A stretch of 64,000 nt of DNA from NCBI RefSeq assembly GCF_003334335.1, contig NZ_QOWQ01000005.1; one strand, given 5' to 3'. Source of the DNA: Escherichia coli. Lineage in GTDB: Bacteria; Pseudomonadota; Gammaproteobacteria; Enterobacterales; Enterobacteriaceae. The notes under the pieces were generated by a model. It was not told where the DNA came from. It saw only the letters and a program-made list of their open reading frames with translations, and ran no database searches. Positions 8,388-8,553 of the stretch are shown here, in pieces. The position numbers and the translations under genes are program-made. How positions within the stretch are numbered: the first letter of the stretch is position 1; every line of letters starts with the position of its first letter.

Positions 8388-8399
8388 TTTTTTCTCCAT

Positions 8400-8417
8400 C
8401 AGCGAAACGTTTCGCTG
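8400..8417. promoter_or_regulatory. rbs operator (RbsR binding palindrome cagcgaaacgtttcgctg)
   Basis: Perfect 18-bp palindrome immediately upstream of the rbsD SD and start; matches the known LacI-family rbs operator core CGAAACGTTTCG. Confidence 0.8.
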
Positions 8418-8553
8418 ACCCACAGTTTAATCCTGACTGAGTTGGGAAAACCATCGTGACGTTACGGAAATGTGATCAACCTCGAAACGTTTTACATGGT
8501 GATTAACCATGAAAACAAAAACGCCCCCTTATGAAGAAAGGAGGCGTCTGGCG

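Follow-up and report, generated by a model that had tools for sequence, protein, structure and literature searches.

The ribose operator rbsO of Escherichia coli and a conserved RbsR-like site upstream of it

The described systems closest to the control region of the ribose operon are those of lac and gal and the operators of PurR. The lac control region carries operator O1 at +11, a CAP site at -61.5 and the auxiliary operator O3 at -82. At gal, the dimeric repressor GalR acts through two operators (OE and OI) that flank the promoter, with the upstream operator next to the CRP site at about -60; the two are 113 bp apart, the second is intragenic, and they form a loop with HU. For rbs, the 1992 study of Mauzy and Hermodson reportedly footprinted a perfect dyad that overlaps the transcription start. 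Papers that cite this study and Shimada et al. (2013) describe RbsR as a LacI-family repressor of rbsDACBKR inducible by ribose, and D-ribose reduces its affinity for the operator. Structures of RbsR at 2.1 Å, with ribose and with rbsO, were obtained using the self-complementary 30-mer GTGGGTCAGCGAAACGTTTCGCTGATGGAG (2025 preprint, doi 10.1101/2025.04.02.646877; PDB 9NY7/9NY8). In these, the RbsR dimer sits on a symmetric rbsO that is without the extra central base of lacO1, its hinge helices lie in the minor groove, and the operator is bent by ~45 degrees (doi 10.1101/2025.04.02.646877). The natural rbsDACBK operator has also been cloned 3' of the trc promoter for reporter assays with wild-type RbsR, in wording that implies both repression and induction, and the RbsR of Serratia shifts a probe from upstream of rbsD and is released from it by ribose.

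Here we analyzed a 64-kb stretch of E. coli DNA (hereafter the window, 64,000 nucleotides, to which all positions refer), in which a perfect palindrome upstream of rbsD had been predicted to be the operator through which RbsR represses the ribose operon. Taken as one whole, the region is almost certainly best explained as rbsO lying at the predicted start of a weak, probably CRP-dependent promoter, accompanied by a distal site that is probably weak or a remnant (Table 1).

Table 1. Features of the kup–rbsD intergenic region and the associated rbs genes, in window positions.
Feature	Position	Strand	Remarks
rbsR, LacI/GalR-family ribose repressor	2519..3511	-	last gene of rbsDACBKR; RefSeq annotation and PDB match
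rbsD, D-ribose pyranase (139 aa)	7968..8387	-	first gene of rbsDACBKR; ATG 8385-8387; RefSeq annotation
rbsD Shine-Dalgarno GGAG	8394..8397	-	1 nt downstream of the palindrome, 6 nt upstream of ATG
Primary RbsR operator rbsO	8399..8418	no strand	perfect 20-bp palindrome TCAGCGAAACGTTTCGCTGA
Conserved 16-bp operator core AGCGAAACGTTTCGCT	8401-8416		inside rbsO
Predicted -10 hexamer TAAACT	8424..8429	-	only hexamer in the region with 4/6 -10 matches including A2 and T6
Weak -35-like TGGTTT	8448..8453	-	18-bp spacer to TAAACT; 2/6 match to TTGACA
CRP-like site TTCGA-GGTTGA-TCACA	8471..8486	no strand	centre 8478.5; -61.5 or -62.5 from predicted start
Distal RbsR-like site TGTAAAACGTTTCGAG	8481..8496	no strand	centre 8488.5; 80 bp upstream of operator centre; 11/16 core match
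kup intrinsic terminator	8509..8549	-	hairpin 8549-8519 (12-pair stem), then T-tract

The palindrome upstream of rbsD

Positions 8388-8553 are exactly the 166-bp kup–rbsD intergenic region; its genes are on the minus strand, and the kup stop codon occupies 8554-8556. Between 7900 and 8700 the window shows 100% identity to E. coli K-12 MG1655, and this segment was matched in 5412 of 5426 complete E. coli genomes. On the identical K-12 sequence, RefSeq annotates kup, rbsD, rbsA, rbsC, rbsB, rbsK and rbsR, all in one direction. The intergenic region was covered by less than 80% in 96 of the 5412 E. coli genomes; IS insertions upstream of rbs, which are said to occur in E. coli B, are a likely cause. 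Along the minus strand, one T (8398), the GGAG and six A's come, in this order, between the palindrome and the rbsD ATG. The palindrome had been described as abutting the rbsD ribosome binding site, and that single T is all that separates the two. GGAG is near-invariant among the aligned loci, one of which has GGGG. Two in-frame codons upstream of the annotated rbsD start, an ATG (8399; 12 nt upstream) and a GTG (8423; 36 nt upstream), yield a mechanical ORF of 151 aa; as other genera conserve neither codon, we keep the annotated start at 8387 (139 aa).

String search of the window placed CAGCGAAACGTTTCGCTG exactly at 8400-8417, where the perfect 18-bp palindrome had been reported. It forms the middle of a perfect 20-bp palindrome with arms of 10 nt each and no spacer, centred at 8408.5 on a CpG (C8409/G8408). 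Operators of the LacI/GalR family are 16–20 bp inverted repeats with a central CpG, a description that rbsO fits, and the locus encodes a cognate LacI-family repressor, rbsR. The RbsR of the window matches the PDB entries 9NY7/9NY8 ('Ribose operon repressor') over residues 2-330 (E 6.5e-221); the next best PDB match is PurR (5e-95), and CcpA and LacI chains were also matched. The published rbsO 30-mer equals window positions 8423..8394 on the minus strand, base for base, with the palindrome at its centre. This identifies the palindrome as rbsO, the already known primary operator of the ribose operon rbsDACBKR in E. coli: sequence, genomic position and cognate repressor show no difference from E. 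coli rbsO. Its reading as an RbsR operator was thus borne out by identity to the 30-mer crystallized with RbsR, by conservation of the core (below) and by the presence of rbsR in the same operon.

We collected 80 species-level Enterobacteriaceae loci with RbsD as probe (RbsD identity 86–99%). The RbsD homologue search returned no protein less than 82% identical and, as far as these were named, all were from Enterobacteriaceae; loci of Proteus mirabilis, Vibrio, Photobacterium and Aeromonas were added from chromosomes filed as plasmids. The 81 species referred to below are the 80 Enterobacteriaceae plus Proteus mirabilis. The 16-bp core AGCGAAACGTTTCGCT shows no variation among the 80 Enterobacteriaceae loci (first base in 79/80) or in Proteus mirabilis, whereas the intergenic columns around it vary freely, which settles the question of the palindrome in favour of a real site. 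Only Escherichia and Proteus have the two outer base pairs that bring the palindrome to 20 bp (in most genera the sequence is ...CGCTAG), so the functional unit is the 16-mer. The site originally put at 18 bp is therefore a real palindrome of different extent, 20 bp in Escherichia with a conserved functional core of 16 bp. In Vibrio campbellii, two ATCGAAACGTTTCGAT sites stand at a distance of 127 bp, and Aeromonas gave no RbsR-type match at all; the exact architecture is thus confined to Enterobacterales. A near-perfect 30-bp palindrome, CATCGAAACGATTGCGTAATCGTTTCGATG, lies at ~-113 to -84 from the rbsD ATG in Photobacterium sp. DA100 (L085), and looks like two RbsR half-sites moved apart.

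Chance alone can produce a palindrome of this length at the scale of the window: at least one of 20 bp or more arose in 28 of 300 (~9%) first-order Markov shuffles of the whole window, and at this scale palindrome length by itself is not decisive. Inside the 166-bp promoter region the expected number is ~1.6e-4. With the core conserved in 81 species and the sequence identical to a crystallized operator, the view that the palindrome arose by chance and has no function is already refuted by conservation and the published structure, and we give it practically no credence. Apart from the operator, no perfect palindrome in the 64-kb window exceeds 14 bp. The next longest measure 14 bp (three cases), whereas 205 of the 300 shuffles reached at least 16 bp, which suggests a general avoidance of long palindromes in this genome.

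The site could also belong to another LacI-family regulator that recognizes a AAACGTTT core, such as PurR or Cra/FruR. The consensus sites of PurR (ACGCAAACGTTTGCGT) and Cra (GCTGAAACGTTTCAGC) both have a central AAACGTTT, and PurR, the closest paralogue and closest structural relative of RbsR, is thought to derive from a duplication of RbsR. Like PurR operators (e.g. purF), rbsO has a 16-bp architecture, the central AAACGTTT and a CpG as the point of hinge-helix insertion. Its outer triplets, however, are swapped relative to those of PurR operators: the flanks GCG/CGC are of RbsR type, against CGC/GCG for PurR and CTG/CAG for Cra. This exact sequence was crystallized with RbsR, and the ribose operon that it precedes itself encodes RbsR. 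We consider control by PurR or Cra at this site extremely unlikely and retain RbsR as its regulator. The two paralogues also respond to their ligands differently, PurR binding with its corepressor and RbsR being released by its inducer.

Other matches in the window were also recorded. A search of the whole window for the 18-mer with up to three mismatches returned two matches against 0.05 expected; the second (35498-35515, three mismatches) falls within the ORF 35147-36007 (286 aa), which from its position is probably bglG, and looks like chance. Matches to the RbsR core with three mismatches number 12 in the window against 4.7 expected, an excess that may come from codon or composition bias. 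One RbsR-like stretch, a candidate intragenic operator, lies within rbsD at 8133-8146, ~270 bp downstream of the operator (ACGAAACGTTGCTC, minus strand), combines a good with a poor RbsR half-site and is kept in 58 of 81 species. Its third-codon-position conservation (0.88–1.0, rbsD mean 0.77) is no higher than that of neighbouring codons. Another is found at the 3' end of rbsK (3612-3625), ~100 bp upstream of the rbsR start, where GCAAAACGAATCGC has three mismatches to the RbsR core.

Predicted promoter and position of the operator

A consensus promoter scan of 8300-8650 found the kup terminator (8549-8519) and no sigma-70 site at threshold; the promoter model therefore rests on conservation. 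An exhaustive scan of hexamer pairs in the region gave weak candidates only, every one of them upstream of the palindrome. In 79 of 81 species, a hexamer of the type TA[AC]ACT stops 6–7 nt short of the AGCG core. TGGTTT or TTGTTT occurs at a spacing of 16–18 bp in 71 of the 81, with the alignment columns T-G-TTT invariant. The poor agreement of the -35 element with the consensus (2/6) is as expected for an activator-dependent promoter. One alternative promoter, TTGATC-18-GATGGT, was rejected, its -10 A2 position not being conserved.

This arrangement predicts that transcription starts at about 8416-8417, where the operator core begins, and would place the operator at about -1 to +19 of the predicted transcript, with its centre at ~+8.5 to +9.5. 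The transcription start data published with Conway 2014, Mendoza-Vargas 2009 and Kim 2012 contain no rbsD entry, and text searches of the literature on the rbsD promoter, UTR and DsrA yielded nothing on the 5' end of rbsD mRNA. Wherever exactly transcription starts, the palindrome and the ATG are just 11 nt apart, and this gap holds the Shine-Dalgarno sequence, so that a promoter downstream of the palindrome is impossible. The original prediction expected the promoter hexamers upstream and had RbsR binding downstream of the promoter. The first part agrees with our result, as TAAACT, TGGTTT and all other candidate pairs lie upstream of the palindrome. The second part needs rewording, as the site overlaps the predicted start and does not lie clearly downstream of it.

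We hypothesize that the operator covers approximately -1 to +19 of a weak sigma-70 promoter (-35 TGGTTT, 18-bp spacer, -10 TAAACT) and that bound RbsR would, like LacI at lac O1, keep RNA polymerase from initiating or from escaping the promoter. The likeness to lac extends to the predicted layout of the region, in which the primary rbs operator would lie over the transcript start with a class I CRP-like site near -61.5. Unlike lacO1, rbsO is perfectly symmetric, without an extra central base.

A start at 8416-8418 would also make the palindrome part of the transcript. The message would then begin with an 8-bp stem and a tetraloop (centroid -10.7 kcal/mol), the stem ending 2 nt before GGAG. As 5'-terminal stem-loops can protect mRNAs from RNase E, the palindrome might be conserved mainly as a 5' hairpin of rbsD mRNA, serving stability or translation, and not as a protein-binding DNA site. 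We judge this very improbable. The core is invariant including its loop bases, with no compensatory changes in 81 species, whereas covariation would be tolerated in an RNA stem. Beyond Escherichia and Proteus the outer pairs of the stem are lost (CTAG vs CTGA), the motif recurs 80 bp upstream in DNA predicted not to be transcribed, and a co-crystal with RbsR exists. The fold of the whole leader, moreover, is not unusual (z = -1.34), and an Rfam search of 8200-8750 gave no RNA family match (best E-values 0.63–1, far below gathering scores). The palindrome is best read as operator DNA, and the 5' mRNA hairpin is at most a secondary by-product.

CRP-like site and distal RbsR-like site

The CRP-like site at 8471-8486 has two mismatches to TGTGA-N6-TCACA and by itself is not above chance, the window holding 28 such matches against 27.9 expected. 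Across species, TTCGA-N6-TCACA is found at a fixed offset in 81/81, and GATCACA is invariant across the 80 Enterobacteriaceae sequences, Proteus keeping only TCACA. Relative to the predicted start, its centre would occupy the classical class I position. A CRP-like site at this position together with a very weak -35 element fits a CRP-dependent promoter, and the rbs promoter probably depends on CRP-cAMP at ~-61.5. This matches the usual account of rbs as an operon under catabolite control.

Two copies of the 10-mer CGAAACGTTT stand in the E. coli intergenic region, at a distance of exactly 80 bp. Exactly two AAACGTTT cores lie upstream of rbsD in 80/80 Enterobacteriaceae, spaced 78 bp (n = 6), 79 bp (n = 46) or 80 bp (n = 28), and Proteus has the same arrangement at 78 bp. 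All 81 species therefore carry a site similar to the primary operator 78–80 bp from it, within the ~50–120 bp taken here for auxiliary operators of the lac O3 or gal OE type. The original prediction described a single operator; the primary site stood, and this second conserved RbsR-like site 80 bp upstream had gone unmentioned. The distal consensus is (T/A)GCGAAACGTTTCGA, with AAACGTTTCGA invariant, and the site agrees with the core at 13–14 of 16 positions in most genera and at 11/16 in E. coli. Its left half has GCG in 71 of 80 species and TCG in four others, and reads ACGAAAC in Proteus. The window and the five Escherichia loci have GTAAAAC in place of GCGAAAC, with loss of two of the positions that tell RbsR from PurR sites.

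The distal 16-mer overlaps the 16-mer of the CRP-like site by 6 bp and the 22-bp CRP site by 9 bp (the CRP left half), so joint occupancy by RbsR and CRP looks sterically unlikely. The same overlap raises the question of whether the motif at 8481-8496 is an RbsR site at all, or owes its conservation to the CRP site and its operator likeness to coincidence. Its invariant part, TTTCGA, coincides with the left half of TTCGA-N6-TCACA. An A always follows the right-half CG, a departure from the RbsR consensus that arises because the CRP half-site includes this base. A single RbsR operator is annotated in E. coli, and Escherichia has a degenerate left half. The left half GCGAAAC, however, lies 10–16 bp from the CRP centre, outside the CRP core, is kept in 71–75 of 80 species (ACGAAAC in Proteus) and exactly mirrors the RbsR half-site, so that CRP alone does not explain the conservation of the distal motif. 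RegPrecise, furthermore, holds more RbsR sites than regulons in Enterobacteriales (17 sites for 11 enterobacterial regulons), which means that second sites have already been catalogued computationally in some genomes and are not new. We therefore regard an explanation by CRP conservation alone as unlikely, if to be taken more seriously than the alternatives weighed for the palindrome itself, and treat the distal motif as a putative RbsR site.

Comparison with lac and gal places this site in context. Like lac, rbs has a second, weaker operator-like site upstream of or overlapping the CRP site, 78–80 bp from the primary operator (lac 92 bp); unlike in lac, the distal rbs site overlaps a CRP half-site directly. 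RbsR (330 aa) is shorter than LacI (360 aa) and, to our knowledge, lacks the C-terminal tetramerization helix of LacI. A LacI/RbsR chimera with the regulatory domain of RbsR showed no dependence on operator spacing, which argues against looping by RbsR and makes looping of the O1–O3 type unlikely for rbs. The constant 78–80 bp spacing was considered as a sign of looping and rejected, the spacing being fixed by the offsets from operator to start, start to CRP and CRP to distal site. With gal, rbs shares a dimeric LacI/GalR-family repressor and a predicted second site beside a CRP-like site; looping with HU and an intragenic second operator are features of gal.

Two observations concern the DNA around the distal site in E. 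coli. Between the kup terminator and the distal site, positions 8491-8515 form an inverted repeat (TTTACATGGT/ACCATGAAAA, 9/10 complementary, 5-nt gap), one arm of which holds the degenerate distal left half; the repeat is Escherichia-specific and is not conserved outside the genus. In E. coli strain PEC209 (NZ_CM168015.1, L087:2480-2600; one of 5426 complete genomes), exactly 80 bp are deleted between the repeated operator cores (window ~8403-8492), which leaves the chimeric site TGTAAAACGTTTCGCTGA. The CRP-like site and the predicted -35 and -10 elements are gone, so rbs in this strain appears promoterless. The deletion could be a real repeat-mediated event or an assembly artefact.

Implications for rbs control

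In our proposed mechanism, a second RbsR-type site at ~-71.5 would overlap the CRP site in its upstream half, and RbsR probably uses this distal site in most Enterobacterales to exclude CRP as well (anti-activation). In Escherichia, where two specificity positions of the left half are lost, the distal site would probably be a weak auxiliary site or a remnant. Such degeneracy fits both the single operator annotated for E. coli and the behaviour of the LacI/RbsR chimera, which is without operator-spacing dependence. On these grounds we put forward, tentatively and stopping just short of favouring it, a two-operator scheme of rbs control in Enterobacterales, in which RbsR would both block the start and exclude CRP, and in which the weakening of the distal site in Escherichia (GCGAAAC to GTAAAAC) would have rewired control towards single-operator repression. 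As far as we found in the literature, this two-operator reading has been catalogued only computationally, in the site counts of RegPrecise.

For E. coli itself, the palindrome is a re-discovery of a textbook-type operator with a solved repressor–DNA structure and adds nothing new; that rbsO and its mode of action were recognized from the bare sequence makes it a positive control for this kind of reading. The distal-site comparison may matter to users of RbsR and rbsO as a synthetic-biology part. The distal RbsR/CRP composite, degenerate in Escherichia, offers a testable case of lineage-specific loss of an auxiliary operator.
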